A stretch of 64,000 nt of DNA from an uncultured Vampirovibrio sp. (GCA_964503025.1 CAZCZF010000002.1:2999-66998), one strand, 5' to 3'; numbered from the stretch's first letter, positions 1,860 to 53,111 are shown. A program made the numbers and translations. The notes: generated from the letters alone by a model not told the origin.

Positions 1860-3239
1860 ATGAATATTTTACCTGTAAAAATACCTTTTTTAGGAATAAA
1901 AAATAATAATCAAAAAAAAAATAATAATAATACATCTTCCTTAATAACAACTGAAGCTCAGTCTGACTGTTCTGTTATTTTTCAGGGAGGTACTGCAAAG
2001 AACGCAGAGCCGTTAAGAGCTCTTATGCATTATGGAGTTCCTGGGATATATTCGGGCAAATATGTAATTCCTCAAGAAATTATTGATAAAATGCTCAATA
2101 ATCATACGTTTTCCAAAACAATAAGACACATAGTAAAAGCTTTAAAACCTTATGAGAATAGGTTGTTGAATGTAGAATCGCAGTTTTATTCAATTGTAAA
2201 AAGTATGGCTAAAACAAATCCAAACTACCATTTAAAAGATGTGGTGGGGGTTATAGCGCCGGAACATAATAAAAAACTAATAGAACAACAAATTCCTATA
2301 TTAAAAGAGATTTATGCTCTGGCAGCGTATATGCCTGATGAACAGTTTAACAAATTTGACAGTTTGATGGATTCTGTTTGTAAACGAATTAATCGCGAAC
2401 CGGTAGTTTTGCCCTTTGATTTAAAAGAATTAAAGAGTAAGTTGCATCATTTTATGAATGAATATTCAAAACGAAATAAAATGGTGGAATTTGATACTAT
2501 GGTGCAAATTATGCATTTTGCCAAAAGAATGCCGGAAACTCCAAAATCTCTTAATGAAACTTCAAAAGTAAAAAGATTAAAACAGGTAAAAAAATCAAAA
2601 TCTCTGGTTAGAAAAAGAGCTGAGATTTTAACACAGATGGAAATTGCTGCTGCTTCCAGTCCGCTGAAAAATAATCCTGATTTGATGAAATTATTTACAC
2701 AAACTCGTGCTAAAATATATGGAATACCAGTTGTAATACCTTTTAATCGCAAATCTTTTATCGATGATATTGAAAAAATAACAGGTACATTAGAAAATAC
2801 CAAGTTGGCACATAGAATTAATCAAGCTGCAATAAAGCTTCCGACATCGCATAAAAGCTTGTCAGCTTTTGTCATGAAAAACTTGGAACTATCTTCTGAC
2901 AAAATCGGATACAATATGGTTATCGGTTCAGCAGGAAGCATTGACCACCTAATTCCGTTTTCTCAAAAAGGCAAAAATTGTATAGAAAATTACGCAATAA
3001 CTACATCTTATTACAATTCAGAACGTGCTCATCGTTCAATAGAACATCAATTGAAGAAATATCCTGTAGCGTATATTCATTGTCAAGAGTACGTTGATAG
3101 GTTGATAGAATTATATAATCAAGGAATATTTAAAAAAGTTAAATTGCCGAGACATTATATTCTCAACTTTGTAAAACTTATGCAAAAACTATCTCCGCAA
3201 GAAAAACCTCTAATATTGAATGTTGATAAACTTAAATAA
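1860..3239 (+). CDS. Hypothetical protein with C-terminal HNH-like nuclease motif and Asn-rich N-terminal leader
   Basis: 459-aa ORF; SIDHLIPFSQKGKNCIENYAITTSYYNSER fits the DH-x-x-P...N...N HNH pattern. Confidence 0.6.
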   Translation: MNILPVKIPFLGIKNNNQKKNNNNTSSLITTEAQSDCSVIFQGGTAKNAEPLRALMHYGVPGIYSGKYVIPQEIIDKMLNNHTFSKTIRHIVKALKPYENRLLNVESQFYSIVKSMAKTNPNYHLKDVVGVIAPEHNKKLIEQQIPILKEIYALAAYMPDEQFNKFDSLMDSVCKRINREPVVLPFDLKELKSKLHHFMNEYSKRNKMVEFDTMVQIMHFAKRMPETPKSLNETSKVKRLKQVKKSKSLVRKRAEILTQMEIAAASSPLKNNPDLMKLFTQTRAKIYGIPVVIPFNRKSFIDDIEKITGTLENTKLAHRINQAAIKLPTSHKSLSAFVMKNLELSSDKIGYNMVIGSAGSIDHLIPFSQKGKNCIENYAITTSYYNSERAHRSIEHQLKKYPVAYIHCQEYVDRLIELYNQGIFKKVKLPRHYILNFVKLMQKLSPQEKPLILNVDKLK

Positions 3240-3257
3240 TAATGTTATCATGGTAGT

Positions 3258-4064
3258 ATGAAATCAGTAAAAGAAGTATCGGTAGAGTCAAAAATTTTAA
3301 AGCGATTGCAGGATTACCCCAATTGTTTAAAGCTTGTGCATTATTTATTTGATGATGAAGAGCTGCAAGAGATGCAGGATTATGCAAATAATGTTTCAAT
3401 CAAGCGTCTTGGGTATAATGACCATGGTCCTGTGCACATGAGACAAGTGGCTGCGAATTCAATCAAAATGCTCAATATCCTTCACGAATGTGGAATAAAA
3501 ACCTCACTTGAAACAGAAGAAATCGGAACATTTGAGGATAGCATGTGTGCAGTAATTCTTGCGGGGCTTATGCACGATTTGGGTATGATGATAGGCAGAC
3601 AAGGACATGAAGAAATGTCTGTCATTTTGGCAAAACCGCTTATTGAAAGAGCTTTAATGGCAGTTTTTCCGGATGATTTGCACAGGCGTGTTATAATACG
3701 TTCTATTGTAATTGAAGCAATTATCGGACACATGTCATCAAGAAAAATTCATTCTACGGAAGCCGGAATAATATTAATTGCTGATGGTTGTGATATGACA
3801 AAGGGCAGAGCAAGAATTCCGCTTTCAATCAATACAACTCCGAAAGTTGGAGATATTCACAAATATTCTGCGAATGCGATTAACAGAATTAGGATTCAGC
3901 ATGGTGAACGCAAACCTATTAAGATAACGGTAGAAATGTCTGCGGAAGTCGGATTTTTCCAGATAGAAGAAGTTTTGATAACGAAGATTGATTCAAGCCC
4001 TGCAAAAGAATACGTTGAATTATTTGCGGGTGTTGAAGGTGAAGAATCTAAGTGCTATTTATAA
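3258..4064 (+). CDS. HD-domain phosphohydrolase
   Basis: HGPVH, LMHDLG, GHM and ADGCD metal-binding motifs. Confidence 0.85.
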   Translation: MKSVKEVSVESKILKRLQDYPNCLKLVHYLFDDEELQEMQDYANNVSIKRLGYNDHGPVHMRQVAANSIKMLNILHECGIKTSLETEEIGTFEDSMCAVILAGLMHDLGMMIGRQGHEEMSVILAKPLIERALMAVFPDDLHRRVIIRSIVIEAIIGHMSSRKIHSTEAGIILIADGCDMTKGRARIPLSINTTPKVGDIHKYSANAINRIRIQHGERKPIKITVEMSAEVGFFQIEEVLITKIDSSPAKEYVELFAGVEGEESKCYL

Positions 4065-4082
4065 TGCTATCATTTCGTGAAA

Positions 4083-4973
4083 TTAAGCGTCCGTGCGTGA
4101 AGTAGCGAAAAAATCGTAAAAATTATAGAATTGATACGGGTATTTTAGTGTGTATTTTTCCAGAAATCGTACATAAGCTTGTTTCAAATCTTCGAGTTTT
4201 TCGTCTCTTTTTGTCTTTTCTGTTTCAAATTTTTCGGTATAAACTTTAAAGAATTTGCCTTCTTTTGCACAAACAATAAAGTAAATTGGCACATTCATAA
4301 TTTGTGCAAACTTTAGAGTTCCAATAGGAAGTTGAATTTTTCTGGCCAAGAAATCTGCTTCATAAGTTTTGTTGGTATTTTGTGCAGATACTCTATCTCC
4401 TGCCATAAATACAATTTCACCGTCTTTTAAGCGCTCGGAAATTAAAATGGATGTTTCTGCGCTGATGTCTTCCACCGAAAAAACTTCTATATCAAGTTTA
4501 AGCTCCAATGACTTCAAAAAATTATTAAAAATTTCACAGGCATTGGATTGTAAAAATACATTGACGCGTTTTGGTTCATATTCTTTATGCAACTGAAATA
4601 AAGAACGTAAGATTTCAACATTTCCGATATGAGTTGTTATAAAAAAGGCGCCGTTTGCAATTCCTTCATTGGGCAGGATAAATCTGTTTGGATTGATTTT
4701 GCCCAAGCAGGATATAAGTTTGTCTACGAGTGAGTTTCCGTAATTCAGGAATTGAAAAAATGAAGAAATCAAGATGTGTTTTTTGTTTAATATTTTGAAG
4801 AATTTTTGCGATGCGTGACGTTGTTCTTTTGCTTTTATAAAAACAAATAAAACAACAAAAAACGTAATAATCCTAACAGGAATTTCGCCGAAAATCTGAT
4901 AAATATATTTTGTTAAAATCAGGCGCTTTTTACCGGCACCTTGTTCTGAAAACTGAAACCATTTTCTAGACAT
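4083..4973 (-). CDS. LpxL/LpxP-family (lipid A lauroyltransferase-like) acyltransferase, similar to the acyltransferase half of ApeJ
   Basis: TTHIGNVEIL (H-x-G-N-x-E), AGDR, YPYQFYNFYDFF C-terminus; last gene of the acyl cluster. Confidence 0.75.
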   Translation of the reverse strand: MSRKWFQFSEQGAGKKRLILTKYIYQIFGEIPVRIITFFVVLFVFIKAKEQRHASQKFFKILNKKHILISSFFQFLNYGNSLVDKLISCLGKINPNRFILPNEGIANGAFFITTHIGNVEILRSLFQLHKEYEPKRVNVFLQSNACEIFNNFLKSLELKLDIEVFSVEDISAETSILISERLKDGEIVFMAGDRVSAQNTNKTYEADFLARKIQLPIGTLKFAQIMNVPIYFIVCAKEGKFFKVYTEKFETEKTKRDEKLEDLKQAYVRFLEKYTLKYPYQFYNFYDFFATSRTDA

Positions 4974-31183: not shown

Positions 31184-32497
31184 CTAGCCACCGAGTTGAA
31201 TTAGCTGATTTATGGTATCTTCATATTCAATTTTGTCATCTGTTGATTGGGTTAAAAATTCGTTAATTTGTGGCATCATGGCAATTGCCTTGTCACAGGA
31301 CGGATCAGAACCTTTAACATAAGCTCCGATATTGATTAAGTCCTCATTCTTTTTGTGGACGGCAAGCAGGTTTCTTAAATTACCCGCAGATGCGCGATGT
31401 TCTTTTGTTGTGACATCTCCCATTACCCTGCTTAATGATTGCAAAACATCGACTGCGGGATAGTGGTTTTTGTGTGCCAATTCTCTGGAAAGCATAATGT
31501 GTCCGTCAAGGATGCTTCTTGCTGTATCAGAAATCGGTTCGTTAAAGTCGTCACCTTCTACCAAGACTGTATAAAGTCCCGTGATTGTGCCAAATTCATT
31601 AGTTCCGGCGCGTTCCATTAATTTAGGCATTAATGCAAATACAGAAGGTGTGTATCCTCTTGTCGCAGGTGGTTCTCCGATAGCAAGTCCGACTTCTCTC
31701 TGTGCCATTGCAATACGTGTAATACTATCCAGCATAAAAAGTACATCCATGCCTTTGTCTCGGAAATATTCCGCAATTGAGGTTGCAACGAAAGCTGCTT
31801 TTATCTTAACCAATGATGGTTGTTCGGAAGTCGCTGCAATTACAATTGAGCGCTTCATGCCTTCTGCACCAAGGATTTCTTCTATAAATTCCTTAACCTC
31901 ACGTCCACGTTCTCCTATAAGTGCGATTACGTTTAAATCTGCGGTAGTATTTTTTGCCATCATACCGATGGTTGTACTTTTTCCGACACCAGAACCTGCA
32001 AAAATACCCATTCTCTGTCCTTTTCCGACGGTGGCAAATCCGTCAATAGATTTGATACCGAGAGAAAGCGGTTCTGCAATTCGTTTGCGTTTTAATGGGT
32101 TGATTGCTTCTGCTTGCGTAGAGCGATATTCTGAAAAACGAATTTCTCCTAATGTATCAATCGGGTATCCAAGCCCATCTAAAACTCTTCCGATTAATTG
32201 GTTTCCTACGCCGATTTTCATTGCACCGCCGGTGTTAACTACTAGAGCTCCGGGGTGAATTCCATCGGGTGAAGCAAGAGGCATGAGCAATATTTTGTCA
32301 CGTTTAAATCCTACAACTTCCGCCATCGTAGGTTTATCGCTATAATTGTTATAAATGTAGCACAAGTCGCCAATAGAGGATTTTGGACCGTCGGATTCAA
32401 TCGTTAGTCCGATAATTTCAGTAATCTTGCCGATTTCTTTAATCGTTTGTGACTCTTTTATTATGTTAAGATATTCGTTTTTGTTCCAGTCCGTCAT
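31184..32497 (-). CDS. fliI: Flagellar/type III export ATPase FliI
   Basis: AGSGVGKST, GERGREVKEF, DSITRIAMAQRE, GEPPATRGYTPS, ILDGHIML. Confidence 0.93.
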   Translation of the reverse strand: MTDWNKNEYLNIIKESQTIKEIGKITEIIGLTIESDGPKSSIGDLCYIYNNYSDKPTMAEVVGFKRDKILLMPLASPDGIHPGALVVNTGGAMKIGVGNQLIGRVLDGLGYPIDTLGEIRFSEYRSTQAEAINPLKRKRIAEPLSLGIKSIDGFATVGKGQRMGIFAGSGVGKSTTIGMMAKNTTADLNVIALIGERGREVKEFIEEILGAEGMKRSIVIAATSEQPSLVKIKAAFVATSIAEYFRDKGMDVLFMLDSITRIAMAQREVGLAIGEPPATRGYTPSVFALMPKLMERAGTNEFGTITGLYTVLVEGDDFNEPISDTARSILDGHIMLSRELAHKNHYPAVDVLQSLSRVMGDVTTKEHRASAGNLRNLLAVHKKNEDLINIGAYVKGSDPSCDKAIAMMPQINEFLTQSTDDKIEYEDTINQLIQLGG

Positions 32498-32551
32498 ACG
32501 TTGTACTCTTTATTAACTCCCTTTGTGTTTCAATCAGAACTCGCGATATAT

Positions 32552-33289
32552 TTAGCTTCCTCTTAACATTTTTTCTGCAATTTCTGCGATTTGCGATGAA
32601 ACTCTTGAATCGAGTCTGGTATCCGGAGTTTCTACAATTACACCATCTGCAGAAAGCGAGTTATCCTCAAGAATTTTGAGTGTTTCTAATTTAGAAATTT
32701 CATTTTTAAATTCAGGTGTCAGTTGATTAATATTATCTGTGAGTTTTGGGTTAACAATAATTGTGATGTTTTCTTTATCATTTAATTGTTTAATCGCATC
32801 AAGTGTGACATTATGCAGCACCTCTTCGTTAAATTGTAGGTGGCAAACCTTGTCTGCGATTGCAATAACGAGTTCTATAATATCTCTGGAAGCAGATTCT
32901 ATTATATTTTTTTTGATTTCAAAAGAGCTTGAAGAAAGTGTGTCAAGAGATTTTAACCCTTCAATTGCATCGTTCTGAAATTTGTGTAATCCGTCCAGCT
33001 CTCCTTTTTCAAATCCTTCTTTGTAAGCTTGTTCTTTGATTGCGTCATACTCTTTTTGAGCCTTTTTTTTTGCATTTTCTATGATTGTTTCCGCTTCGGT
33101 ATTTGCGGCTTGAACAACTATTTGTGATTTATTTTCGGCAACACTGATAATTTGCTTAGCTTTTGCATCAGTTTCTTCTAAAATTTGTTGTACTTTTGCT
33201 TGCTGACGTGTTACGCGCGTTTGCTCGATGGGCAAAACGTAATTACCGCCCATTTGTATGTCATCACTTTTAATTCTGTTGCTACTCAA
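32552..33289 (-). CDS. fliH: Flagellar export ATPase regulator FliH
   Basis: Coiled coil with AxxxGxxxGxxxG repeats (AYKEGFEKGELDG); GVIVETPDTRLD; TTG start overlaps the fliG stop. Confidence 0.88.
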   Translation of the reverse strand: MSSNRIKSDDIQMGGNYVLPIEQTRVTRQQAKVQQILEETDAKAKQIISVAENKSQIVVQAANTEAETIIENAKKKAQKEYDAIKEQAYKEGFEKGELDGLHKFQNDAIEGLKSLDTLSSSSFEIKKNIIESASRDIIELVIAIADKVCHLQFNEEVLHNVTLDAIKQLNDKENITIIVNPKLTDNINQLTPEFKNEISKLETLKILEDNSLSADGVIVETPDTRLDSRVSSQIAEIAEKMLRGS

Positions 33290-34331
33290 TTAATTCGTCC
33301 TCAACACTTGCACGTGTAATAGTAATTTCTCCGGTTGCTTCAAGATTTCTGATAGCGTTAACAATTCCCGTTTGAGCTTCCTGAACCTCTTTGGCTCTGA
33401 CAGGACCAAGATATTCCATGTCGTCCGTAAGCATTTGTTTTGCTCTTTCAGACATGTTTTTGAAGATTTTATCTTTAATTTCTTCTTTTGTACCTTTAAG
33501 TGCGAGCGCAAGTTGCTTAGAATCAACTTCCCTAAGTAATCTTTGAATAGCTCTGTCATCAAGAATGATAATATCTTCAAATACGAACATCAAGTCGCGA
33601 ACCTCTTGTGCCATTTGTTGGTTTTCAATGTCTAGCCATTCCATAATGTTCTTTTCAGTACCTCTGTCGCAACAGTTCAAGATGTTTGCAAGAGATTCTA
33701 CACCACCTGCATTTGAAAAATCTTGTACCAATAATGCAGAGAATTTATGTTCTACAATATCTTCAATCGTGGAAAGAATTTCAGGATTTGTAGGTGTCAT
33801 GTCCGCAATACGCATAGAAACTACAGCCTGAATATCCGGAGGTAAAAAGGCAAGAACTTGTGCTGCTTGTTCCGGTCTCAAGTATGCCAAAATAAGTGCC
33901 AGAAGTTGCGGGTTTTCGGAAGAGAATGTGCTTGCTAATTGTGAAGGGTCTGCTTCGTTAAGAAAGTAGAACGGGTTTGTGTTAATCATTGAATTAACTT
34001 TTTCTAACAATTTGGAAGCTTCTGCATCACCATAAGTTTGTGCAAGAAGTTGCTTGGCATATCCGACCCCACCTTGGGCAATATAGTTTTTAGCTTGGAA
34101 AACGCTCTTAAATTCTAACAATACTTCGTTTAAATCTTCATCAGAAATTTTGCCAAGGTTTGCAATATCAAGGGTGATTTGTTCCAATAAATCCTCGTCT
34201 TTTATGTTTTTAAGTATTTCGGAAGCAGTTGCCGGTCCTAACGCGATCAAAAGTGCTGCAACCTTTTGACTCGGACGCGTTATCGTCTTTTTTGCTTCTT
34301 CTTTTGCTTTTTTTATTTCTTCTATTCCCAT
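33282..34331 (-). CDS. fliG: Flagellar motor switch protein FliG
   Basis: QKVAALLIALG, GGVGYAK, ENPQLLALIL, MFVFEDI, MSERA...DDM...GPVR. Confidence 0.95.
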   Translation of the reverse strand: MGIEEIKKAKEEAKKTITRPSQKVAALLIALGPATASEILKNIKDEDLLEQITLDIANLGKISDEDLNEVLLEFKSVFQAKNYIAQGGVGYAKQLLAQTYGDAEASKLLEKVNSMINTNPFYFLNEADPSQLASTFSSENPQLLALILAYLRPEQAAQVLAFLPPDIQAVVSMRIADMTPTNPEILSTIEDIVEHKFSALLVQDFSNAGGVESLANILNCCDRGTEKNIMEWLDIENQQMAQEVRDLMFVFEDIIILDDRAIQRLLREVDSKQLALALKGTKEEIKDKIFKNMSERAKQMLTDDMEYLGPVRAKEVQEAQTGIVNAIRNLEATGEITITRASVEDELIE

Positions 34332-34357
34332 TTTTTAACCTTTATGGTGATAAATCA

Positions 34358-35902
34358 TTAATCTCTGATAAACGATGTCAGAAGTTTTGCGGCTTCATCA
34401 GGAGCGGCCATGACTGCGTCGTTTATTTCGTTTATATTTTGTTCTTTTTGAGATTTAACTTCTTTTCTGTTCAATTCAATTTTTGGCAACTCTTCTTCTT
34501 GCTCTAAATCTTCTTGTTTTTCATTATATTCTTCTTGCTGAATTATATGTTCTGTTCTTTTTGCAGATGGCATCTTTGCAATAAAGTTTTTCAAAATATA
34601 CAGAGCGAATCCACCAAGGATTAGAACAATAAGTAGAGGTATTACGGAAGAAGTTACAAAGTATATCATTTGTTCCTTTTGATATTGCTGAGCAAATTCT
34701 TCTTGTGCGTGTTTATCAATAACAACACCTTCAAATTGAAGTCCTGAAACTGAAATGACGTCTCCTCGTGAATAATCAACTCCGGCAGCAGAAAGAACAA
34801 GATTTTTGAGCTCTTCTTTTTCTGAATCGGTCAAGATTTTGTTTACGGCTACGGCAATCGATAAACGCTTTACAGTCCCAGGTGCATAAACAACTTGTTT
34901 AACTTCTTTTGTTACACTGTAATTTACTGATGTTTTTTGTTTTGAATAATTCAAATTTCTCTGGTTAACGTTATTTGGATTAGGAACATTGTTAGGGTTC
35001 TCATAAGTTTCGACTTCTGTTTGAGAACTTGTAACAACACCTTCTCCTTTTTCATTCGCTGGAATGTAACTTTCTATTGTCGATTTTGCAGAGTTGAAAT
35101 CAATATCTGCATTAACCTGTACTGAAACATTGCCTTTGCCGACAATTTTTTCCAAAACATCTGAAACTTTTTTGGCGGTATCCTTTTCCAAACCACTCTT
35201 GAAGCTTTCCATGTCTGTAGAATTTTTTGATGTTTCATCCGATAACGTATTACCGTTTTGGTCAGTAATAAATACATTTTCCGGTGTCATTCTCGGAACT
35301 GCATAAGCAACGAGATTTTTTATTGCTTTAACCTGTGATGCCTTAATTTTATAGCTTGGTTCAAGAACCAAAACTACTGAAGCAGTTGGCTTTTCGTCAT
35401 TATCGTCAAATATGGAACGTTCAGGCTCTGCAAGTTGAACTCGTGCGTATCTTACACCCTGTATTCTTTCTATTGAACGTGTGAGTTCGCCTTGAAAAAT
35501 TCTCTGTTTTGTAAGTTTGTTTTTAAAGTCGGTAGAACCTAATTGCATATCATCAAGTAGCTCAAATCCGGTGTCACCGTTTTTTATCAAATCGTTTTCT
35601 GCAACAAAAACTCGCATGTCATCTCTTACGTTGGATGGTACTAAAATTGTTTTATGATCTTCGGAAACCTTGTATTGATAGCCGTTTTTCTTCATCCCTT
35701 CAACAATGCTTAACGCGTTTACTTCATTGAGGTCAGAGTATAAAACTACCCAATCAGGCTCCATTGCTTTTGATAAAAAGAATGTTGCAGCAACAATTGT
35801 AATCACAATCAAAGCAAGCATTCCAAGTCTCTGGTTTCCGTCTAAACCATTCCATAATTTCTTTACATCGTTAGCTAGTAGTGCAAAATAATTATTTTCC
35901 AT
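34358..35902 (-). CDS. fliF: Flagellar M-ring protein FliF
   Basis: Two TMs; LYSDL, GFELLD, QGELTRSI, ARVQLA, KPTASV, KRLSIAV. ATG at 35902 follows GGGGAG. Confidence 0.93.
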   Translation of the reverse strand: MENNYFALLANDVKKLWNGLDGNQRLGMLALIVITIVAATFFLSKAMEPDWVVLYSDLNEVNALSIVEGMKKNGYQYKVSEDHKTILVPSNVRDDMRVFVAENDLIKNGDTGFELLDDMQLGSTDFKNKLTKQRIFQGELTRSIERIQGVRYARVQLAEPERSIFDDNDEKPTASVVLVLEPSYKIKASQVKAIKNLVAYAVPRMTPENVFITDQNGNTLSDETSKNSTDMESFKSGLEKDTAKKVSDVLEKIVGKGNVSVQVNADIDFNSAKSTIESYIPANEKGEGVVTSSQTEVETYENPNNVPNPNNVNQRNLNYSKQKTSVNYSVTKEVKQVVYAPGTVKRLSIAVAVNKILTDSEKEELKNLVLSAAGVDYSRGDVISVSGLQFEGVVIDKHAQEEFAQQYQKEQMIYFVTSSVIPLLIVLILGGFALYILKNFIAKMPSAKRTEHIIQQEEYNEKQEDLEQEEELPKIELNRKEVKSQKEQNINEINDAVMAAPDEAAKLLTSFIRD

Positions 35903-35930
35903 ATCTCCCCGCGCACAGTTCTTCAATATA

Positions 35931-35959
35931 ATCATATCCTATAGGAGAAATCTTTTCAA
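35931..35959 (-). promoter_or_regulatory. Sigma70-type promoter of fliFGHI with a palindrome in the spacer
   Basis: Minus strand TTGAAA-N17-TATGAT; spacer contains the perfect palindrome TCCTATAGGA (35937-35946). Confidence 0.7.
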
Positions 35960-43711: not shown

Positions 43712-43942
43712 TTTTATCTCCCTTATGTTTTTTTTAATTTTATCATAAATAAATAAGTAAGGTTATTGCTATTATTTTATTTTGCTATACAATAAAAGGT
43801 ATTCGGGATTGAGATGTGTATTCCAAGACAACACGAAATTTCATGTGTGTAGCATTAACAAATGTTAACATTTTTGTTTCAAAGAGGCAATTTTTGATGT
43901 TGTCTAAGCTTTATATATATAGGAAGGTATCTTGGAAAGCGT

Positions 43943-45388
43943 ATGAAAGTAGATAAGATTTATCAAAATTATGAAAGTAGCGGTCGTTATAAACTACGCA
44001 AATCCGGTAGTTATAACGTAAACTTTGCCCAGAAGATGCCTTTGAGCGATAGAATAATGGATGGTTTACCTGACAAAAAATTAATAAAAATGATGAAGAG
44101 TTGGGAATGGTTAAAAGGGGAGATTGGCGGTATTTTAATTACTGCAATCGGTACTGGTGTGGTAGCTCCTTGGCCAATTGCGTATAATCCGTTTGTAAAA
44201 GCTCCGAAAGATGCGACAGAACAAGAGAAAATTGATTTAGAAAATACTAAAAAGTATACTGCTCTCAGACAGCCGATTTCTGCAATTCTTGCAATTTTAT
44301 TTCAAGTAAGCGCATTAAAACCTATCGATAAAGTATTAGATATTGTGTTTAACAAGCCTGAATGGGCAAATGAACGATTTAATGTCGGAATACATGTTAA
44401 TCAATCGGTAATTAACGGCAAGTCATATATAGAAAAATTGGCTAAGCAAAAAATAAAAAATGAGAATCCTTCTTTAAAAGGCAAAGAGTATGATGAATTA
44501 CTATCTGCAACAAAGAGTGAAATAGAAAGTTCTCAAGTGAATAAAGTTGCAGAGAATTTCAAAAAAACCGGTAAAATAATGATTGGTGAAAAAGCTTTGG
44601 ATAATAAATCTCTGGCAGAATTAATTAATCGACAAATTGAAGAGTATATTAATGACGCAAAAGCTTTGAAAATAGATAATGAAAAATTGGCATACTATTC
44701 AGAAAGAGCAAAAATTTTAATAGGGAATGAAGCGCATTTAAAAGAGATGTTTAAAGATGCTCCTAATGATAAATCCAAGATAACGGATTTCGTAAAAAAT
44801 CTTTATGCAAAGGAAAAAAATCCTGATGTAAAGATGTTGTTGGAGGAAATATTGGAAAGGCCTTCTGATATACAGTATAGCAGAATTACAAGAACATTGG
44901 ACAGAATACAAAATATAAAAAATATGTGTGGCGGTGAATATACATACGAAAAATATTTTGATGCTATGTCAACTCGTAATACAAAATTGGATAACATAAT
45001 TACAGACTTAATGCATATAAAGATAGTGAAACCTAAGTTGGCTTCAAATGCTCAAATTAATGAATCAATGAAAAAGGTTATTGAAACTTGTCGTTTTGAT
45101 AAATCGGACAAATTGATGAATACAATATTGCATGATACCAATACATTTAACTTTGACAAAGAAAAACTTTCAAATAAGGTTTATAAGGATACTGCCAAAC
45201 AATATAAAGACTTTGTAAGAAACCACTATAAAGGGTTGAATCAGATTATAAAAATACTTATTGGTGTTTGCATTACATTGCCAATTACTTGTAATGTTTT
45301 GAACTGGGTATATCCTAAAGTAATGGATAAATTTTTCCCGAAATTAGCCGGAGCTAAAAAGGCACAAAAAGAAAGGGAGGATAAATAA
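43943..45388 (+). CDS. Hypothetical membrane protein with a large soluble insertion
   Basis: Two hydrophobic helices near the N-terminus, ~280-aa charged helical region, C-terminal hydrophobic helix. Confidence 0.7.
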   Translation: MKVDKIYQNYESSGRYKLRKSGSYNVNFAQKMPLSDRIMDGLPDKKLIKMMKSWEWLKGEIGGILITAIGTGVVAPWPIAYNPFVKAPKDATEQEKIDLENTKKYTALRQPISAILAILFQVSALKPIDKVLDIVFNKPEWANERFNVGIHVNQSVINGKSYIEKLAKQKIKNENPSLKGKEYDELLSATKSEIESSQVNKVAENFKKTGKIMIGEKALDNKSLAELINRQIEEYINDAKALKIDNEKLAYYSERAKILIGNEAHLKEMFKDAPNDKSKITDFVKNLYAKEKNPDVKMLLEEILERPSDIQYSRITRTLDRIQNIKNMCGGEYTYEKYFDAMSTRNTKLDNIITDLMHIKIVKPKLASNAQINESMKKVIETCRFDKSDKLMNTILHDTNTFNFDKEKLSNKVYKDTAKQYKDFVRNHYKGLNQIIKILIGVCITLPITCNVLNWVYPKVMDKFFPKLAGAKKAQKEREDK

Positions 45389-46098
45389 TGAAAATTGATA
45401 ATTCATCCTTCATTTCTAAAATGGTAAATTATGGTGCAAATGCTGTCGGTTCTGTAACGCGTACAAAGCCTATAAAATGGCTTGGAGATCAGTTCCAAAA
45501 GAATCCTGAAAAAGCGTTGGCTTATACAACCGGAGCTTCAATTGTTATCAAAGATGGTGTTGGTTGTTTTAAATATGTAAGTCAATCTTTGAATAACAAA
45601 GAAATTCCTGATGAAAGAAGAAATTTTGTTGCAGCAATGGATTTGTCAAATGGTCTTTTGATGATTCTTGCTCAGATAGGAATGTTCTTTGCAATGAGAA
45701 AATACAGTGGACCTATTTTTGATAAGTTGTTCAAAAAATCATTTAACCCAAAAGCTTTGGAAAACTTGGCTGCAAAATTGAGAAATGAAGATCATTCTAT
45801 CAGAAAGTTGGTGTTTAACAAAGAAGCTGAAAAAGTAAGAAAAGAATCATTGGATTTGTTCAAGTTTGTTGTTGATATTGCTGCTGCTACAATTATCGGT
45901 AAACGTATTATAGTTCCGTTTGTTGCGACTCCGGTAGCAAACGTTGTTAAAGACAAGATGGATAAAATAACTAAAGAAGAAGAAATAGATGATTCGGATG
46001 ACAATGATAAGATTGAAAAAGAAGATTATAATGAACAAATAGAAGAAAACACGAAAACTAAAGAAGCCGATGATGACGACGATGACGATGATGATTAA
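45388..46098 (+). CDS. Hypothetical membrane protein with poly-Asp C-terminal tail
   Basis: TAATG-coupled to the upstream gene; three hydrophobic segments; ends EADDDDDDDD. Confidence 0.7.
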   Translation: MKIDNSSFISKMVNYGANAVGSVTRTKPIKWLGDQFQKNPEKALAYTTGASIVIKDGVGCFKYVSQSLNNKEIPDERRNFVAAMDLSNGLLMILAQIGMFFAMRKYSGPIFDKLFKKSFNPKALENLAAKLRNEDHSIRKLVFNKEAEKVRKESLDLFKFVVDIAAATIIGKRIIVPFVATPVANVVKDKMDKITKEEEIDDSDDNDKIEKEDYNEQIEENTKTKEADDDDDDDDD

Positions 46099-46237: not shown

Positions 46238-46255
46238 ATTTCCGCATGCGGAAAT
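46238..46255. promoter_or_regulatory. Perfect 18-bp palindrome upstream of the XRE gene (candidate operator)
   Basis: ATTTCCGCATGCGGAAAT, 33 nt before the ATG. Confidence 0.55.
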
Positions 46256-46288
46256 CATTATTTTTAAGAAGGCATTATTATAGTAGCT

Positions 46289-46537: not shown

Positions 46538-46570
46538 TTTCTTATTCAATTCTCATGTTAGAATGTTGCT

Positions 46571-47670: not shown

Positions 47671-47714
47671 CCCATCAAGTTTTGATAATATTTTAAAGTT
47701 ATTTACTTATTTAT

Positions 47715-49601
47715 TTATTCTCCAAGAAGCTTGTCAGCTAATGGTGATTCGACTTTCCCGTTCAAGGTTTTAGAAACTTTTTTTATGTTTTCTGCCATTT
47801 TTTCCATTTCCGGAGTCCATACAAAGTTGTCAAGGACATATTTTTCTCCTTTAGAGAAATCGCCCTTTAGCTGAACCTGTATTATTTCTTCTAACATTTT
47901 ACGCGCGGTTGGCACCATTTTGTCGATATTTACATTTAAAATGCCATCCGGAGAAATTTCTATTGCGCCTTCTTTGATGAAATAATAATTTTGCATGACC
48001 GAACGAACCCTATGAGCCTGACTCAAAGTCGGTTTAGACATCATCATATTATCTGCAGCATAAGTTACAATAATTTGTTTTCTCTGCTCCGGTGTGTACA
48101 TTCCGGCTTCTGTCAGCAAATCTAACATGGCAAGAGAAATCATATCAGCTTTGTTTTCTTCAATTATTGATTTATACTTGCCTAATCCTTCTGTGCCGGA
48201 TTTTGGTCCGAGTGAGTGTCCGTTTTCGTGTCCGACAGTAAACCAATGGTCTGCTTCATCGTTGTAGAATTGATGTAATTCAGGATTAAGCGTTGCGTTC
48301 AGTCTCTTTTTCATTTTTTCGCGTGCATCGTCTGATGTAATCAAACGAATTTGCCTGTGGTAAACATTTCTTCTGCCACCGTCAAGTTCTTTGATGGAAA
48401 GCTTGTCGTCATTTGGTAAGTTTTCCGCAAGTGTAATTCCCGCTCTAAATTCTCCAACATCACCGGTTACGGCTACTAAATCCGCATCAACCATAGTCTG
48501 TTTTGATTCTTTGTCAGGAGAAATATTTTGGATGTAATCATCTTTGAACGGCATATTTTGTGCCATTAATGGTAAATAATTTTTAACTCCCAGTATGGCT
48601 TCTGTTCCTTTTTTGTTGATAATTCCCACTCTTCCGCCGAGAAAATCCTTGGCAACCGGTATAATTCCGTTTTCATCAAGCAATTTTTTTAATTCAGGAT
48701 TTTCCACAACCGTTTCTGTTAATTCATCAGAGTAGTTTTCTCTTGTTATTGTAAATTCCAGCGGTGTATCTTGCAGAGTTGCCCACTTTTTATCAGCATA
48801 AGCATCAAGCATTGGATCTGCTGTTCTTAGAGCTTTTGCTTGCAAAAGTAAGAACTCATTAAAATCTGCATTTGTGGAAGTTTCTGCAGCTTTTTCCAAT
48901 TCGGATGCCATAATCGCAAAATCGTCTTTGAATTTGTCTACATAATCGGTTGCAACAAGTTCATTTCCTGCTCTTTCCACAACCGAACGCTGATTAAGTA
49001 TTTTGGCAACTTCGTCCACTTCTCCCTTTTGAAGCATGTTGATAAGGATTGAATGGAACTCTTCTTTTTCCAAATCTTGCGGGTAAACGCCTTTTCCGGC
49101 ACGCATTGAAACTCCTTTTACAAGTTCAATCATGTTACTTTCTCTATCGAGAGAGCAAACTCCCTTTTGTGCATCAAAAAGAATTTTTGTAAGTTTAGCT
49201 TGCTCGTTTCCTTTTGCAATTTCATCTTCAAGAAATTCTTTAAAAGGCAGGTTATTTGGGTTATCAAGTTGCATATTAACCTTGTCTAATGCAATTGCCG
49301 CTTTTACCAAGTGTTTTAATGCTTCTTTGTCTCCATCTGCAAGTTCTGCGTATTCAGGCGCATCAACAGCTAACATTTTTTTTGTTGTTAAATAATCTTT
49401 ATGTGTTCTTTTATTTAGTTCTTCCATTGAAAGATTTAATTCAAAATCTTTTTTTCCAATATTTACGTTGTTAATCATGCTCATTTTATCAAGCTCCTCT
49501 AATAATTTATTTGAATTTTCAGCAATCTTGTTCTGAGGTGCTTTTGAGTCAACACCTCTTGTTGTTATGTTATTAATTCTATTAATCGGGTTAATATTCA
49601 T
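47715..49601 (-). CDS. Peptidase M49 (DPP III / NUDT3-like) zinc metallopeptidase with Asn-rich N-terminal extension
   Basis: AENLPND, GHENGHSLGP (HExxH), IEENKAD. ATG at 49601 (MNINPI...). Confidence 0.78.
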   Translation of the reverse strand: MNINPINRINNITTRGVDSKAPQNKIAENSNKLLEELDKMSMINNVNIGKKDFELNLSMEELNKRTHKDYLTTKKMLAVDAPEYAELADGDKEALKHLVKAAIALDKVNMQLDNPNNLPFKEFLEDEIAKGNEQAKLTKILFDAQKGVCSLDRESNMIELVKGVSMRAGKGVYPQDLEKEEFHSILINMLQKGEVDEVAKILNQRSVVERAGNELVATDYVDKFKDDFAIMASELEKAAETSTNADFNEFLLLQAKALRTADPMLDAYADKKWATLQDTPLEFTITRENYSDELTETVVENPELKKLLDENGIIPVAKDFLGGRVGIINKKGTEAILGVKNYLPLMAQNMPFKDDYIQNISPDKESKQTMVDADLVAVTGDVGEFRAGITLAENLPNDDKLSIKELDGGRRNVYHRQIRLITSDDAREKMKKRLNATLNPELHQFYNDEADHWFTVGHENGHSLGPKSGTEGLGKYKSIIEENKADMISLAMLDLLTEAGMYTPEQRKQIIVTYAADNMMMSKPTLSQAHRVRSVMQNYYFIKEGAIEISPDGILNVNIDKMVPTARKMLEEIIQVQLKGDFSKGEKYVLDNFVWTPEMEKMAENIKKVSKTLNGKVESPLADKLLGE

Positions 49602-49651
49602 AGACTTCGGACTTGATTGTAACACATTTTGCGGGGTATTTCAATGATTGA

Positions 49652-49876
49652 TTAAAAGGTGAAATCAAACAGTTCCTTCATTTCAACATTTAAAGCATTG
49701 GCAAGAATTACCATTGTATGAATTGTTACATTGGCTTCACCTCGTTCTATTTGTCCGATATAGTTAAAGTTCATGTCAACAATTTCTGCAAGCTTCATCT
49801 GTGAAAGCTTCTGCGATTTTCTTATGTATGCCAATTTGGCTCCGAATTTCTTTTCAAGATTTTCATTAACACTCAT
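49652..49876 (-). CDS. XRE-family HTH regulator
   Basis: FGAKLAYIRKSQKLSQMKLAE...YIGQIERGEANVT...LANAL. Confidence 0.9.
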   Translation of the reverse strand: MSVNENLEKKFGAKLAYIRKSQKLSQMKLAEIVDMNFNYIGQIERGEANVTIHTMVILANALNVEMKELFDFTF

Positions 49877-50066
49877 GATAAAAGTATAGTATTAGTGCTG
49901 ACCTATTTCTAATTACTGTTAGATAACAAATACTAGTTATTAACCATTAAGAATTGTAAAAAATAGTATATACTAATGACCAAAAATATTATTTTCATGT
50001 TTACATGCTGTTTCTAAGAACGATACATTTGTTTCTTCTTCGGTTGCATTTGAAGGTATTACACAA

Positions 50067-51851
50067 ATGGGAATTGCACAACAAAGGGGGCTTTTGTTTC
50101 ATATAACAAGTTTGCCTGCAACTCGTTCTTTTTGTGGGCAATTTGGAGATGTGCAGACTTCAGCTTTTATAAAATGGCTTAAGAAAGCAAAACAGACACA
50201 CTGGATTATGAATCCGCTAAATGCCCTTGATGATACGTTATGCCCTTATGGTGCAAATGGAAGATTTAGCAGGAATAAATTTATTGTAAATCTTAACAAG
50301 CTTACAGGAAAAGAGTATGGCAAAATTCTTAAGCCAAAAGAGTTGCCTGATGATATTACAACTCCGAATTTTACTTTAGATATGTTAGAACGACAGAAAA
50401 ATCCGAGATTTAAACTGGCGTATGATAGGTTTAAAAAATTACCGGATGAAATGCCGATAAAGAAAGAGTATAACAATTTTGTTGAAAAGCAGGGTGATCT
50501 GTGGCTTAAGGATTATGCAAGTTTTGATGTTTTATCCAGAAAATTTGGTTCAAATTGGCATAATTGGGAAAAGGAACTTCAATCAGCGCCGGAAGATGCC
50601 AAGAAAAACGGAGTCTCTCTTGATGAACAGATATTAAAAGTTTTAGATGGAAAAATTAATAAAAATGAGTATTATGACGGATTAGGATTATATAAGTTTG
50701 AACAATTTTTGTATGACAAGCAATATAACGAAATGACGGAAGAATTGAAAAGTAATGGCATTCGTATGTTGTTAGATTTACCTATCGGCGTAAGTTCATG
50801 TGGTGTAGATACGTGGGGTAAGAAGGGCATTTTCTTGTTAGATAAAAATTATAAACCATTGAAAGTAAGTGGTTGTCCTTCGGAAAAAGCATATCCGTAT
50901 ACGCAAGTTTGGGGACACGCATTATACAATTATGATTCACCTGAATTTTGGGATTATCAGGAAGCTTCTATCAAGCAACTTCTACAGAATGCCGATTTAA
51001 GGTTGGATCATTTTGTCGGTTATATTAATAGGGCTGCAATACCTACGGAATACAAGAAAGCAGATGGAACTATTTTAAGAGGAAATGATATTTTTAAACC
51101 GGTGGCTAAGGGCGGTATGGGTGAAGGCTTTTTTGATAACTCATGGATTGAAGATATTTATAACAAAAAAAGTCCTAAAGGCGAAAATATTATAGACTTA
51201 TTTATTCGTTCTGCGTGCGAACTTGGTTTGAAACCGGAAGAAACCTATGTTTTAGAAGATTTTGGACCTCTTGCCAAGACAAAGTTATATAAAGAATTTC
51301 AAAAGAAATCCGGAAAGAATTTTATAAGTCAGCATGTTCCTGTAGGAATGGATATTTGTGACTCTAAAAACAAAAAGAAGATGAAGTATAATATAGCAAT
51401 TTTAACCGGAAACCATGATATGCCACCACTAAGAGAGTTTGTGGATAAGTTGATGGGCAAAGGCAAAGATGTTAACCAAAAAACGCAGAAGAAATTTTTA
51501 AACTTTTGCAAAGAAGAATTAAAATTAACAGAAGAAGAATTGAAAGATTCAAATGCAGTTTTTGAAAATTTGTTGAAATGGCATTATACAAATAATGTAA
51601 AACAGGTACAAACAACATTACAGGATGCATTGGGAATATATTTCCGTCCTAATATTCCGGGATTTTGGAATGGAATAAAGGATAAATTCTTGATGAAAAC
51701 AACTCCTGAAGCTCTTTTGCCTTATTGGAGCAGAGTTTTTCCAAAGAACTTTTTGGAACGTAACAGTGAAAGCGGAATAAACTCTGGATATAAAAATCTT
51801 GCAGATAAATTTGTTGAAATTATGCAAAGTTTGTATCCAAAAGAAAAATAA
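50067..51851 (+). CDS. malQ: 4-alpha-glucanotransferase (GH77, amylomaltase)
   Basis: GLLFHITSLP, LDLPIGV, QVWG, RLDHF, EDFG, TGNHD: catalytic D/E/D all present. Confidence 0.85.
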   Translation: MGIAQQRGLLFHITSLPATRSFCGQFGDVQTSAFIKWLKKAKQTHWIMNPLNALDDTLCPYGANGRFSRNKFIVNLNKLTGKEYGKILKPKELPDDITTPNFTLDMLERQKNPRFKLAYDRFKKLPDEMPIKKEYNNFVEKQGDLWLKDYASFDVLSRKFGSNWHNWEKELQSAPEDAKKNGVSLDEQILKVLDGKINKNEYYDGLGLYKFEQFLYDKQYNEMTEELKSNGIRMLLDLPIGVSSCGVDTWGKKGIFLLDKNYKPLKVSGCPSEKAYPYTQVWGHALYNYDSPEFWDYQEASIKQLLQNADLRLDHFVGYINRAAIPTEYKKADGTILRGNDIFKPVAKGGMGEGFFDNSWIEDIYNKKSPKGENIIDLFIRSACELGLKPEETYVLEDFGPLAKTKLYKEFQKKSGKNFISQHVPVGMDICDSKNKKKMKYNIAILTGNHDMPPLREFVDKLMGKGKDVNQKTQKKFLNFCKEELKLTEEELKDSNAVFENLLKWHYTNNVKQVQTTLQDALGIYFRPNIPGFWNGIKDKFLMKTTPEALLPYWSRVFPKNFLERNSESGINSGYKNLADKFVEIMQSLYPKEK

Positions 51852-51863
51852 AATTTAATTTGT

Positions 51864-51895
51864 GCCGCTTTTCACACTTCATAGCGGCTTTTTTT
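51864..51895 (+). terminator. Terminator between convergent malQ and the HD gene
   Basis: GCCGCT ... AGCGGC followed by T7. Confidence 0.6.
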
Positions 51896-52724
51896 ATCCC
51901 AACATTGCAACATTTGTTTTGCCGAATTTTGCGGACAAATCATCAATGTGATGAATAAGATACACATAAGGTTCTAAGTCTTTTTCGTTCAAATCAACGA
52001 TTGCACCCCAGTCTGTTCTTGCGTGGTGTGCTGCAATCATTTTTGCTACACGCTTAAATCCGGATGTCATACAAATTGAAAATCCGTACTGAGAGTGCGA
52101 AATCCATTCTTTGCGGAAATCTTCTTCATAATCAATCAAGCCTGATTCGGTATCTACTTTATATTCAAATATTTTACCAATATCATGCAACAAACAAGCC
52201 GCAAAAACTTCATCACTGTTAACTCTTTGGAAAAATACTTCCAAATTGGCTTCTGCATATTTTAAACATTCGTGGGTATGAACCATTAATCCACCCACGT
52301 AATTGTGATGCATTAACTTTGCTGCCGGCATGATAAGAATTTTGTCTTTATTTTCGCTGTATATATTTGATACAAAGCTTTTTAATTTTTCGTCTTTGAT
52401 TTTTTCGATATAACTTAAAAGAGCGTTATATTCAGAAATTCTTTCTTCTTCGCTAAGTCCAATTTTTGCTTCTTTAATTAATTCCAACGCAGAAACAAGA
52501 CAGTTGTTGTATTTTTCGTTATAAGAACCTGATACTATTCTAAGCAAGTTGCCACATCTGAACAACTTTGAGTCCATTCTGTTTAGAGCTTCTTCCCAGA
52601 GGATACAGTTTAAAGTCTCTCCGTTTTCCGGATTTTTTAACTGTAATTTCCCCATTTTGCTACCGGACTTTGTGTCTCCGATTGCAAATGTTACAACTTC
52701 ATAGATAATATCTGTGCTAAACAT
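51894..52724 (-). CDS. OB-fold + HD-domain 3'-5' exoribonuclease, YhaM-like
   Basis: N-terminal OB fold; HHNYVGGLMVHT, LLHDIGKIFEY, AAHH, IDDLSA. Start uncertain (52724, 52730 or 52757). Confidence 0.78.
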   Translation of the reverse strand: MFSTDIIYEVVTFAIGDTKSGSKMGKLQLKNPENGETLNCILWEEALNRMDSKLFRCGNLLRIVSGSYNEKYNNCLVSALELIKEAKIGLSEEERISEYNALLSYIEKIKDEKLKSFVSNIYSENKDKILIMPAAKLMHHNYVGGLMVHTHECLKYAEANLEVFFQRVNSDEVFAACLLHDIGKIFEYKVDTESGLIDYEEDFRKEWISHSQYGFSICMTSGFKRVAKMIAAHHARTDWGAIVDLNEKDLEPYVYLIHHIDDLSAKFGKTNVAMLG

Positions 52725-52759
52725 TTTCATTCCCCCAGTACGTAAATATTGTAGCATAA

Positions 52760-52791
52760 AAAAAGAATTGAATTTTACTTCAATTCTTTTT
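52760..52791 (-). terminator. Intrinsic terminator after the glycine-zipper gene
   Basis: AAAAAGAATTGAA-ttttac-TTCAATTCTTTTT perfect stem. Confidence 0.85.
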
Positions 52792-52796
52792 CCTTA

Positions 52797-53111
52797 TTAC
52801 GGTTTTTTCTTTTTTTCCTCTTCGTTTACATCATCAATTGCGTGACCAAGCATACCACCGGCTGTACCCATTGTTGCTGCATAAATTCCGTACGCAATAG
52901 GAGTTGCTAAGCCTCCGCTAATAAGTGCTACTGCTCCTATCCCAATAAGTGCTCCCAGACCGGCTCCTTTTGCAGTGTAACCTTTAAAAGCTACTGTGTC
53001 TTGTATTGGTTCTGACTCCGGAGTTGTTTTCAGACCTTGATGATTACGCACACATTTTTGTTTTGAGATTGTGCGAGGGTTCTCATAATGTTGGATAGCA
53101 GAAATTCTCAT
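52797..53111 (-). CDS. Small glycine-zipper membrane protein with polar N-terminal leader
   Basis: 44-aa polar leader ending VAFKG, then GAGLGALIGIG...GTAGGMLGHAID and a charged tail. Confidence 0.75.
   Translation of the reverse strand: MRISAIQHYENPRTISKQKCVRNHQGLKTTPESEPIQDTVAFKGYTAKGAGLGALIGIGAVALISGGLATPIAYGIYAATMGTAGGMLGHAIDDVNEEEKKKKP

Follow-up and report, generated by a model that had tools for sequence, protein, structure and literature searches.

Several otherwise unrelated proteins encoded in a 64,000-nt stretch of DNA from an uncultured Vampirovibrio sp. (GCA_964503025.1, CAZCZF010000002.1:2999-66998; we refer to this whole stretch as the window) begin with a similar leader. Its layout is an M-x-[I/V] head, an Asn/Ser/Gln-rich and acid-poor stretch, and then a Phe box, x-F-[K/R/Q]-[G/A/S]. 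We find that this leader is a real, non-random and lineage-specific N-terminal tag, and that it reaches beyond the order Gastranaerophilales. The leader class comprises roughly 40-70 proteins per genome, or 2-3% of the proteome, and the evidence supports the view that its members are unrelated apart from the leader, mostly orphans, and lacking in hydrophobic signals of the Sec type. Many of the leader genes appear to be transcribed from a dedicated, putative promoter type, TAGCAA-N15/16-GTTTT. As for what reads the tag, our leading proposal, to which we give a probability of about 40%, is the "N system." (This is our name for a second, non-flagellar set of flagellar-type III export proteins, which is a candidate exporter.)

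The leader is enriched at true N-termini

The window is part (C2:2999-66998) of a 135-contig assembly (G000; 2.03 Mb, 34% GC). Homologs of one of its proteins, encoded by the gene that starts at 49601, are named Candidatus Gastranaerophilales or Gastranaerophilaceae in the databases. The G000 gene set (~2000 genes) comes from a simple home-made codon-usage caller, with starts picked by Shine-Dalgarno score, so the sizes that we give for the leader class are approximate. We also analysed the whole of G058, the closed 1.867-Mb genome of an aflagellate relative.

Our strict filter for leaders requires F[KQR][GSA] at residues 7-70 after a polar, acid-poor, non-hydrophobic stretch, with a maximum 11-residue hydropathy below 1.3. 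As decoys, we used pseudo-N-termini cut at internal methionines of the same proteins. In G000, 47 of 1838 true N-termini (2.6%) pass this filter, versus 39 of 6219 decoys (0.6%; odds ratio (OR) 4.2, P = 1.3e-10). Requiring the M-x-[IV] head as well leaves 23 true N-termini and 6 decoys (OR 13, P = 1.7e-10). For G058, the strict filter accepts 29 of 1623 N-termini, versus 0.64% of decoys (P = 6e-5). A relaxed filter finds 52 leaders in G000 and 62 in G058, versus ~19 expected. A sequence-only reading of the window had described a shared leader, without Sec-type signals, on unrelated proteins, and had named enrichment over control N-termini as the check. The excess over decoys in both genomes bears this out.

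The head and the Phe box are coupled (OR 5, P = 6e-5). The head alone (M-x-[IV]-x-x-[IVL]) is weak: it is present in 5% of proteins, which is slightly above expectation. Boxes are concentrated near the start of proteins. Genome-wide, [VI]xFxG is 2-3 times denser within the first 40 residues than further into the proteins, and 29 of the 64 occurrences of [VIL]xF[KQR]G are in the first 70 residues, which make up 23% of all residues (binomial P = 5.6e-5). The Phe of the box lies at residues 7-47 (median ~18), and at or before residue 22 in 24 of 39 cases in G000 and 15 of 17 in G058. Some leader proteins carry two or three boxes. Examples of leaders are MQINTNTSFKG, MRINSVNSNLNFKG, MNFNIQPINFNTQNVRFKG, MQINRISNINFRA, MNSTINPQTSFKA, and MNIQSINRVNTNQKSTNFRA.

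Composition also sets the leaders apart, in a test that is partly circular because part of the leader set had been selected for low acidity: over the first 25 residues, Asn (14.4% vs. 6.6%), Ser (9.8% vs. 6.2%) and Gln are raised, Leu (5.1% vs. 10.3%) and Glu (2.9% vs. 6.5%) are depleted, and Asp is roughly halved too, while an aliphatic residue or proline at position 3 or 4 together with no Asp or Glu in the first 12 residues is found in 30 of 64 leader proteins (47%) versus 328 of 1949 others (17%; OR 4.4). Type III secretion signals have an aliphatic residue or proline at position 3 or 4, lack acidic residues in the first ~12 positions, are rich in Ser or other polar residues, and are poor in Leu. 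The make-up of the leader (aliphatic position 3, no early acids, Asn/Ser/Gln-rich, Leu-poor) fits such signals, in line with the candidate export signal suggested from the window alone.

Orthologs with no more than 25-60% identity still show the pattern, though their leaders no longer align. Because only 23 of the 64 leader proteins in G000 have orthologs in G058, at 23-60% identity for true members, we consider the set to be fast-evolving. (Comparing leader identity between orthologs region by region was uninformative: indels prevent alignment, and the Phe is in register in 7 of 14 pairs. A short hidden Markov model (HMM) of the leader, searched in six frames, gave 22 matches at E <= 10 versus 7 in shuffled DNA, which is too noisy for cross-genome counts.)

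We rejected Sec, lipoprotein or Tat signal peptides as an explanation, as the leaders have no hydrophobic core. The listed leader proteins of G000 and G058 show no hydrophobic run and no RR motif. Ordinary Sec signals are present elsewhere in G000. Segments that resemble transmembrane helices are not enriched in the leader set.

Many leader genes share a putative promoter

A bipartite motif, [T/A][A/G]GCAA-N15/16-GTTTT(T)A, recurs in the regions upstream of leader genes. (A k-mer search of these regions, made before the bipartite structure was recognised, was of borderline significance.) The exact form TAGCAA-N15/16-GTTTT has 32 sites in G000 and 35 in G058, versus 4-6 in shuffled sequence. 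The true motif is thus six- to eight-fold above shuffles, while controls in which the first box was scrambled, the second box reversed or the spacing wrong lie near the shuffled level and reach at most about three-fold.

If genes are chosen by the promoter alone (exact TAGCAA-N15/16-GTTTT within 130 nt of the start), 53 genes are obtained from the two genomes. M-x-[IV] begins 49% of their products, versus 15% of all others (P = 1.5e-8); M-x-[IV]-x-x-[IVLN] begins 43% versus 6.8% (P = 3e-13); and the relaxed Phe box is present in 45% versus 13% (P = 2e-8). Their early acidic content is halved. Since the DNA motif alone predicts the protein pattern, two independent features mark the same genes. 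In most of the 53 genes, 20-40 nt separate the GTTTT box from the ATG, and 7 of the 53 look as if their mRNAs are leaderless. The regulon and the leader class overlap and are not identical; gene 53111, with a full leader, and gene 49601, with a head only, sit behind sigma-70-like promoters.

The TAGCAA promoter is distinct from the sigma-28 flagellar promoter of the same genome. The classical sigma-28 promoter (TAAAGTTTT..TGCCGATA, also TAAAGTTTT-N-AAAAATGCCGATA) is very uniform and precedes 13 genes in G000, including flagellin. None of these 13 genes encodes a leader, and the leader genes are preceded by TAGCAA or sigma-70-like promoters instead of the sigma-28 promoter TAAA-N15-GCCGATAA. 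In G058, the sigma-28 promoter is nearly gone (2 matches). (G058 does keep a canonical FliA/WhiG sigma gene despite this near-loss. The sigma-28 set of G000 includes the flagellin at C24:11925-12947 (L173) and several orphan proteins, one of them, on C35, with 2272 amino acids (aa).)

Over the class as a whole, families f1 and f10 show a clear enrichment of the exact promoter, f11 is at the level of the controls, and the other families give a patchy picture. The consensus probably drifts across the class, so the exact form does not serve as a clean class-wide marker.

Leader genes and cargo in the window

The features of the window that concern the leader are as follows (leader genes are named by the position of their start).

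1824-1849, plus strand: regulon promoter-like motif TAGCAA-N15-GTTTT, ending 10 nt before the ATG of gene 1860
1860-1988, plus strand: leader of P0001, residues 1-43, with MNILPV head, Asn-rich spacer and Phe box VIFQG
1860-3239, plus strand: gene for P0001, a 459-aa orphan cargo with a weak HNH_4 match at residues 345-391
43885-43916, plus strand: variant promoter AGGCAA-N18-CTTTATAT, upstream of gene 43943
43943-44032, plus strand: leader of P0002, residues 1-30, with MKVDKI head, polar spacer and variant box VNFAQ
43943-46098, plus strand: translationally coupled pair of orphan membrane proteins, 481 + 236 aa
47715-49601, minus strand: gene for P0003, a peptidase like dipeptidyl-peptidase III (DPP III; M49) with motif HENGH, behind the sigma-70-like promoter TGTGTTACAAT
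49554-49601, minus strand: head-only leader of P0003, MNINPINRINNITTRG, without Phe
49976-50066, plus strand: broken MalQ leader, remnant ...FVSSSVAFEGITQ in frame with the GH77 open reading frame (ORF)
50067-51851, plus strand: 4-alpha-glucanotransferase (GH77, MalQ) cargo
52797-53111, minus strand: gene for P0004, a 104-aa glycine-zipper microprotein, behind the sigma-70-like promoter TTGACA-N17-TAATCT
52980-53111, minus strand: leader of P0004, residues 1-44, with MRISAI head, polar spacer and Phe box VAFKG

The sequence-only reading had offered five examples, and all five N-termini translate exactly as it gave them. Genes 1860 and 53111 have full leaders, 43943 has a variant box, and 49601 has just the head, but the fifth, 45388 (MKIDNSSF), fails our leader filters (it is the gene that is translationally coupled to 43943). 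Of the cargo names proposed there, "metallopeptidase" fits 49601, whose product is DPP III-like and matches the dipeptidyl-peptidase III structures 5zum and 6eom, but the HNH-like nuclease is a weak match (E = 0.004) below the cut-off. In Pfam, the product of 1860 has this sub-threshold HNH_4 match and the other four example proteins have no match.

The leader of P0001 also holds an early IPFLG. There is no Shine-Dalgarno sequence between the second box of the promoter and the ATG of gene 1860, and the second box ends so close to the ATG that the mRNA is probably leaderless. P0002 passes the relaxed filter, with the Phe at residue 28, and the layout of its variant promoter matches that upstream of a leader gene on contig C23. 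In P0003, the head MNINPIN is invariant among 90%-identical orthologs and the next ~25 residues vary freely. (The close homologs of P0003 are all at least 89% identical and so give no information on signal peptides in distant relatives.)

MalQ was absent from the original list of examples. The remnant upstream of it reads ..SSSVAFEG, and the sole upstream ATG (49976), which is likely the original start, lies one base out of frame with the remnant, across an A5 run at 49983-49987. The break is either a real frameshift or an assembly error in this run. The MalQ ortholog of G236 (L156), from another genus, has an intact leader, MKIRNITAPARVY...AVHFTG followed directly by INGKGIVKQRGLLMHITSLP. (A DNA search for further MalQ orthologs gave 1 usable match in 41 genomes.)

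Of 20 large leader proteins, 11 have Pfam matches. An alpha-amylase domain is matched in a 1600-aa protein and, weakly, in a second one of 582 aa. Other matches are to GH77, a UshA-type 5'-nucleotidase, GGDEF+HD-GYP, an amidohydrolase, AAA ATPases (two proteins), HEAT repeats, and a J domain at the C-terminus. (A neighbouring paralog of the nucleotidase is also in the set; the Pfam search covered the first copy only.) The window adds DPP III, MalQ, and possibly an HNH protein. Some of this cargo is usually exported, and the cargo that needs ATP or GTP would work only in a cytoplasm, be it the bacterium's own or another cell's.

Two flagellar-type III export sets

G000 is flagellated: flagellins, FlgE, rod proteins, FliD, and FliS are present. 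According to BLAST, it has paralog pairs for FliI, FliH, FliF, FliP, FliQ, FliR, FlhB, and FlhA, and Pfam and NCBIfam confirm these export pairs. G058 holds exactly one export set, which is orthologous to the N copies of G000, and we found no flagellar set, flagellin, hook (FlgE) or FliD cap in it. Because the single set of G058 matches the other copies, we assign the fliFGHI genes of the window, the fliPQR-flhB operon on C86, and flhA on C61 to the flagellar set. Both sets are complete, and they are located as follows.

Window 31184-35935, minus strand: fliF-fliG-fliH-fliI, flagellum-specific ("F") paralog set
Contig C1: N-set FliI, 83% identical to G058
Contig C1: N-set FliF and FliE, 63% and 69% identical to G058
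Contig C3: N-set FlhA and FliH, 86% and 56% identical to G058
Contig C3: N-set protein at the FliG position, 44% identical to G058
Contig C10: N-set FliP, FliQ and FliR (with FliM/N-like and FliO), 80%, 74% and 64% identical to G058
Contig C6: N-set FlhB and adjacent sigma factor, 76% and 65% identical to G058

The FliI of the window is only 48% identical to the FliI of G058, and the FliG of the window has all three domains. FliI and FlhB of the flagellar set (the two that we tested) pass the NCBI flagellar equivalog cut-offs. FliI, FlhB, and FlhA of the N set are below these cut-offs, but they still score higher against flagellar models than against injectisome models. The parts of the N system are FlhA, FlhB (with NPTH in the copy on C6), FliPQR, FliO, FliM/N-like, FliI, FliH, FliF, FliE, and rod proteins; it has no hook, filament or cap. 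(The rod genes of G058 were identified by sequence pattern and BLAST only.) The N-set protein at the FliG position has no FliG domain in Pfam. By its components, the N system is a flagellar type III export apparatus, but we do not count it as a flagellum. A divergent FliA-like sigma gene directly follows the N-type flhB in G000, in G058, and in G162, which belongs to family f15 of another order and of which we took a 400-kb sample. This sigma factor scores 76 bits, versus a FliA/WhiG cut-off of 189.6.

The N-type loci have some further features. The gene at the FliG position (g624; C3:41112-42152, and 768129-769139 in G058) lies between fliF and fliH and encodes a fast-evolving protein of 336-346 aa. 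A shorter paralog of g624 is present in most genomes of the commonest genus, and the copy in G058 (402213-402905) adjoins a gene for a 723-aa leader-bearing protein. (We could not use g624 as a class-wide marker of the N system: it evolves too fast and is reliably detected only in f1 and f10.) Between N-type fliP and fliQ (C10:29430-29792 and C10:29844-30296 for the site) lies a 120-aa ORF, which presumably resembles ORF6N/KilA-N-type DNA-binding proteins. N-type FliQ has ~60 extra C-terminal residues (150 aa vs. 91). And two leader genes (C6:24347-25817) stand divergently beside the N-type flhB-sigma pair (C6:22075-23908). One encodes a 395-aa protein that starts with MIQPISTISVCGAYKRNLNFKN; the other encodes a 100-aa glycine-zipper protein, MKVNTINQ...TSFQG, whose layout is like that of 53111 in the window.

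We examined how the two sets are distributed over the order (121 genomes) and the class (151 genomes). Each of the 121 order genomes has FlhB, while flagellin is present in 37 and lacking in 84. Flagellin-positive genomes have two FlhB genes, with one exception, and 78 of the 84 flagellin-negative genomes have one. Across the 151 class genomes too, the number of FlhB copies is almost always one plus the presence of flagellin; families f14 and f15 have one FlhB and no flagellin, and families f11 and f16 have no FlhB. Within the order, no sampled genome lacks the N system, and most of the class keeps it too. Soo et al. (2014; PMC4040986) reported that most Gastranaerophilales (the aflagellate members) have just part of the flagellar genes left, and a 2026 preprint describes ~25% of genomes with full flagellar sets, with the remaining genomes retaining genes that are "postulated" to act in secretion. 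We found no paper in which the retained subset is recognised as a paralog set of its own that exists beside the flagellum, nor any that describes the leader or the promoter.

Which machine might read the leader

The link between the leader and the N system is circumstantial. Leader genes lie within 2 kb of N-system genes in 4 of 29 cases in G058 (P = 0.001) and 4 of 50 in G000 (P = 0.009); by comparison, 2 of 49 are near genes of the flagellar set, which is not significant. Co-occurrence across the Melainabacteria, which the sequence-only reading had proposed as a check, gave a mixed answer. Family f10, from another order, has both an N-system homolog and leaders: there are two FlhB copies and a detectable homolog of the protein at the FliG position, the promoter has 33 sites versus 6 control sites, and leader-type proteins are encoded downstream of it (MSINLSEVRFRG...DEVAFKG, ...KDTVNFTG, ...KDEVSFAG, and MTINLFNFPS). 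Family f11 has neither, as a relative from this family without a type III secretion system (T3SS) shows no leader enrichment. But family f15, in the 400 kb sampled from G162, has the N system and no leaders.

If the N system reads the tag, we propose that sigma-70 promoters would drive the genes of the apparatus and that an alternative sigma factor would then turn on the leader genes. The sigma-70-like promoters of the N system, together with the motif on leader genes, would fit such an early/late hierarchy. Through the aliphatic head and the Phe box, the unfolded N-terminus would dock onto the export gate, and the leader protein would then leave the cytoplasm for the periplasm, the surface, the medium or another cell.

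Several observations weigh against the N system as the reader. In the 400 kb of G162, the N-type flhB-sigma synteny is present, yet the filter accepts 2.4% of N-termini versus 2.06% of decoys and there are no leader-like N-termini, so the N system is not sufficient for leaders. The neighbourhood signal amounts to 3-4 genes per genome, with one or two false positives included. Co-occurrence is confounded by phylogeny: since every genome with the flagellar set also has the N system, function and shared ancestry cannot be told apart in this way. We identified no outer-membrane conduit for the N system. No TAGCAA motif was found upstream of N-system genes, whose promoters are sigma-70-like, or of sigma genes; candidates for reading the TAGCAA promoter are the flhB-adjacent sigma factor, its paralog on C14, and the canonical FliA on C26. 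Much of the cargo is typically cytoplasmic and nucleotide-dependent (AAA ATPases, J domain, GGDEF+HD-GYP, DPP III, MalQ). Finally, the Phe, at a median position of ~18, is closer to the N-terminus than the 19-30-residue spacing of early flagellar subunits would suggest.

The sequence-only reading had pointed to the FliF/G/H/I machinery of the window as the possible exporter. The genome is indeed flagellated with an intact flagellar set, the flagellar flhA on C61 has a leader gene immediately upstream of it, and flagellar substrates carry disordered N-terminal signals (PMC8983047). But fliFGHI, like the fliPQR-flhB operon that goes with it, is the wrong paralog. G058, which has neither this set nor flagellin, hook or cap, keeps the leaders and the promoter, so the leader does not need a flagellum; most genomes of the order lack flagellin; the leader genes lie outside the sigma-28 regulon; and they are not enriched near the flagellar genes. 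The leader class is independent of the flagellum, and export by the flagellar apparatus as the sole route is contradicted and very improbable. We give just as little credence to the idea that the leader has no function and merely results from AT-rich codon use at starts, from constraints on leaderless mRNAs, from orphan ORFs of low complexity or from start sites called wrongly. This genome has 34% GC, positions 2-6 of its proteins are in general rich in Lys, Asn, and Ile, the head alone is barely above expectation, some promoter-linked mRNAs look leaderless, and the gene calls are home-made. However, the rates for internal-Met decoys are 4-13 times lower, the head is coupled to the box, an independent DNA motif predicts the protein pattern, diverged orthologs and members of another order still show this pattern, and a low-GC relative from f15 shows no enrichment. 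The decoy and promoter tests largely refute this explanation. The least credible explanation is a signal for loading cargo into a contractile injection system or a phage-tail-like particle. Contractile-injection cargo does use disordered N-terminal signals, and G000 has two sheath genes (C7:5020-5547 and C41:6380-6907), which probably lie in prophages or tail-like elements. The distribution contradicts it, as the sheath family (PF04984) is in only 24 of the 121 genomes, in a patchy pattern, and was not found in G058.

The tag might instead act within the cytoplasm, as a short linear motif that brings co-regulated enzymes to a scaffold, to the cell pole, to a chaperone or adaptor, or to a protease (as a degron), with no transport involved. 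The AAA ATPases, the J domain, GGDEF+HD-GYP, DPP III, MalQ/GH77, and the amidohydrolase would all be at home there, a dedicated alternative promoter suits a developmental or stress programme, family f15 has the N system without leaders, and the leader set is not enriched in transmembrane-like segments. Set against this are the type III-like composition (aliphatic position 3, no early acids, Ser/Asn-rich, Leu-poor), the UshA-type nucleotidases and the giant amylase, which are usually exported, the many members that are small glycine-zipper or membrane proteins, and the modest enrichment of leader genes beside N-system genes; we also identified no candidate cytoplasmic reader. Because the cargo splits between usually exported and cytoplasm-type proteins, we regard a cytoplasmic tag as a serious rival, if a somewhat less likely one than the N system. 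Alternatively, and compatibly with either export or a cytoplasmic tag, the leader might be a propeptide, with the F-x-G box as the site of a dedicated protease that acts after export or as an activation step. Many members have the box directly before the folded or hydrophobic part (VAFKG before YTAKGAGLG, AVHFTG before INGKG..GH77, FKG before NVYE..metallophosphatase), and the length and sequence of the spacer vary freely. On the other hand, no residue after the box is conserved, some members have two or three boxes, we found no candidate protease, and the known analogue, the L27 extension that is cleaved by Prp, is absent: L27 starts with MAHKKG (MAHKKGMGSTRNGRDS) and has no extension, which rules out an extension of that type. 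We consider a propeptide improbable.

Comparison with known systems

How does the leader, with the N system as its proposed reader, compare to known signals? Type III substrates such as the Hops of Pseudomonas syringae and late flagellar substrates have an uncleaved, disordered N-terminus on unrelated, fast-evolving, effector-like cargo, and to our knowledge their signals have no sequence consensus. The leader is similar in its composition, its presumably disordered N-terminus, and its unrelated and fast-evolving cargo. It differs in that it has a recognisable M-x-I/V-N... head and Phe box, its genes often share a promoter, and no injectisome is present.

Gehre and colleagues are said to have shown in 2016 that Chlamydia secretes enzymes of glycogen metabolism through its T3SS. 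There too, normally cytoplasmic glycogen enzymes (MalQ and the amylase family) carry type III-like N-terminal signals, but Chlamydia is an intracellular pathogen with an injectisome.

The signal of early rod and hook subunits consists of small hydrophobic residues and an FxxxPhi gate-recognition motif that binds FlhB-C (Bryant et al. 2022; PMC8983047). At least 19 residues, and typically ~30, separate these two parts (PMC8983047). Like this signal, the leader has non-polar residues at positions 3-7, a replaceable polar linker, and a downstream Phe motif, and the preference for Ile or Val at position 3 among promoter-defined genes (49% vs. 15%) fits it. Unlike this signal, the leader usually has its Phe too close to the N-terminus, and its box is F-[KRQ]-[GAS] and not FxxxPhi. 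(By eye, a hydrophobic residue is present at +4 from the Phe in roughly half of the members, which is near chance.) Also, the leader cargo does not consist of axial proteins with D0 domains, and the class persists in the absence of hook and filament.

Flagellar T3SSs without flagellin are known from other bacteria. Buchnera has kept one in its basal bodies. In Lysobacter enzymogenes OH11, a flagellin-less flagellar T3SS exports non-flagellar proteins (Fulano et al. 2020; PMC7688988), and fliI and flhB are required there to secrete a protease, a glucanase, and a HAD-family protein (PMC7688988). As in the N system, a flagellar-type gate, an ATPase, and a basal body are kept without a filament. 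But the systems of Lysobacter and Buchnera are leftovers of a single flagellar set, without a defined substrate signal or regulon, while the N system is a separate paralog set that stands beside a complete flagellum in flagellated members and is kept in each sampled genome of the order.

The regulation is reminiscent of the FliA (sigma-28) regulon, with a group-3-like sigma gene beside flhB, dispersed targets, and a bipartite promoter with a 15-16-nt spacer. The boxes are different, however (TAGCAA/GTTTT and not TAAA/GCCGATAA), and a separate canonical sigma-28 regulon is present in the same genome.

Implications

The broadest form of our proposal is that most Vampirovibrionia (Melainabacteria) have, beside the flagellum or in its place, a second flagellum-derived basal body, without hook or filament, that serves as a general export or delivery machine, with its own sigma regulon, the first sequence-defined type III signal, and effectors that include nucleotide-dependent enzymes. 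We regard this as unlikely to hold in full. If it is true, it would be an independent conversion of a flagellum to secretion, parallel to the origin of the injectisome, and the nucleotide-dependent effector enzymes would make sense only inside another cell.

The Gastranaerophilales are non-photosynthetic relatives of the cyanobacteria that are widespread in the guts of humans and other animals, and they have no cultured member. The "remnant" flagellar subset that they retain is a paralogous apparatus of its own, and it is strongly retained. Should the tag be the substrate signal of the N system, it could serve as a sequence rule to list which proteins an entire bacterial class secretes or delivers, and the N system would be a second natural case of a flagellum turned secretion system. 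A tag that acts in the cytoplasm would represent a bacterial sorting motif of a new kind, linked to an alternative sigma regulon. In both cases, the promoter and the leader, taken together, allow a direct test of the question of the reader.

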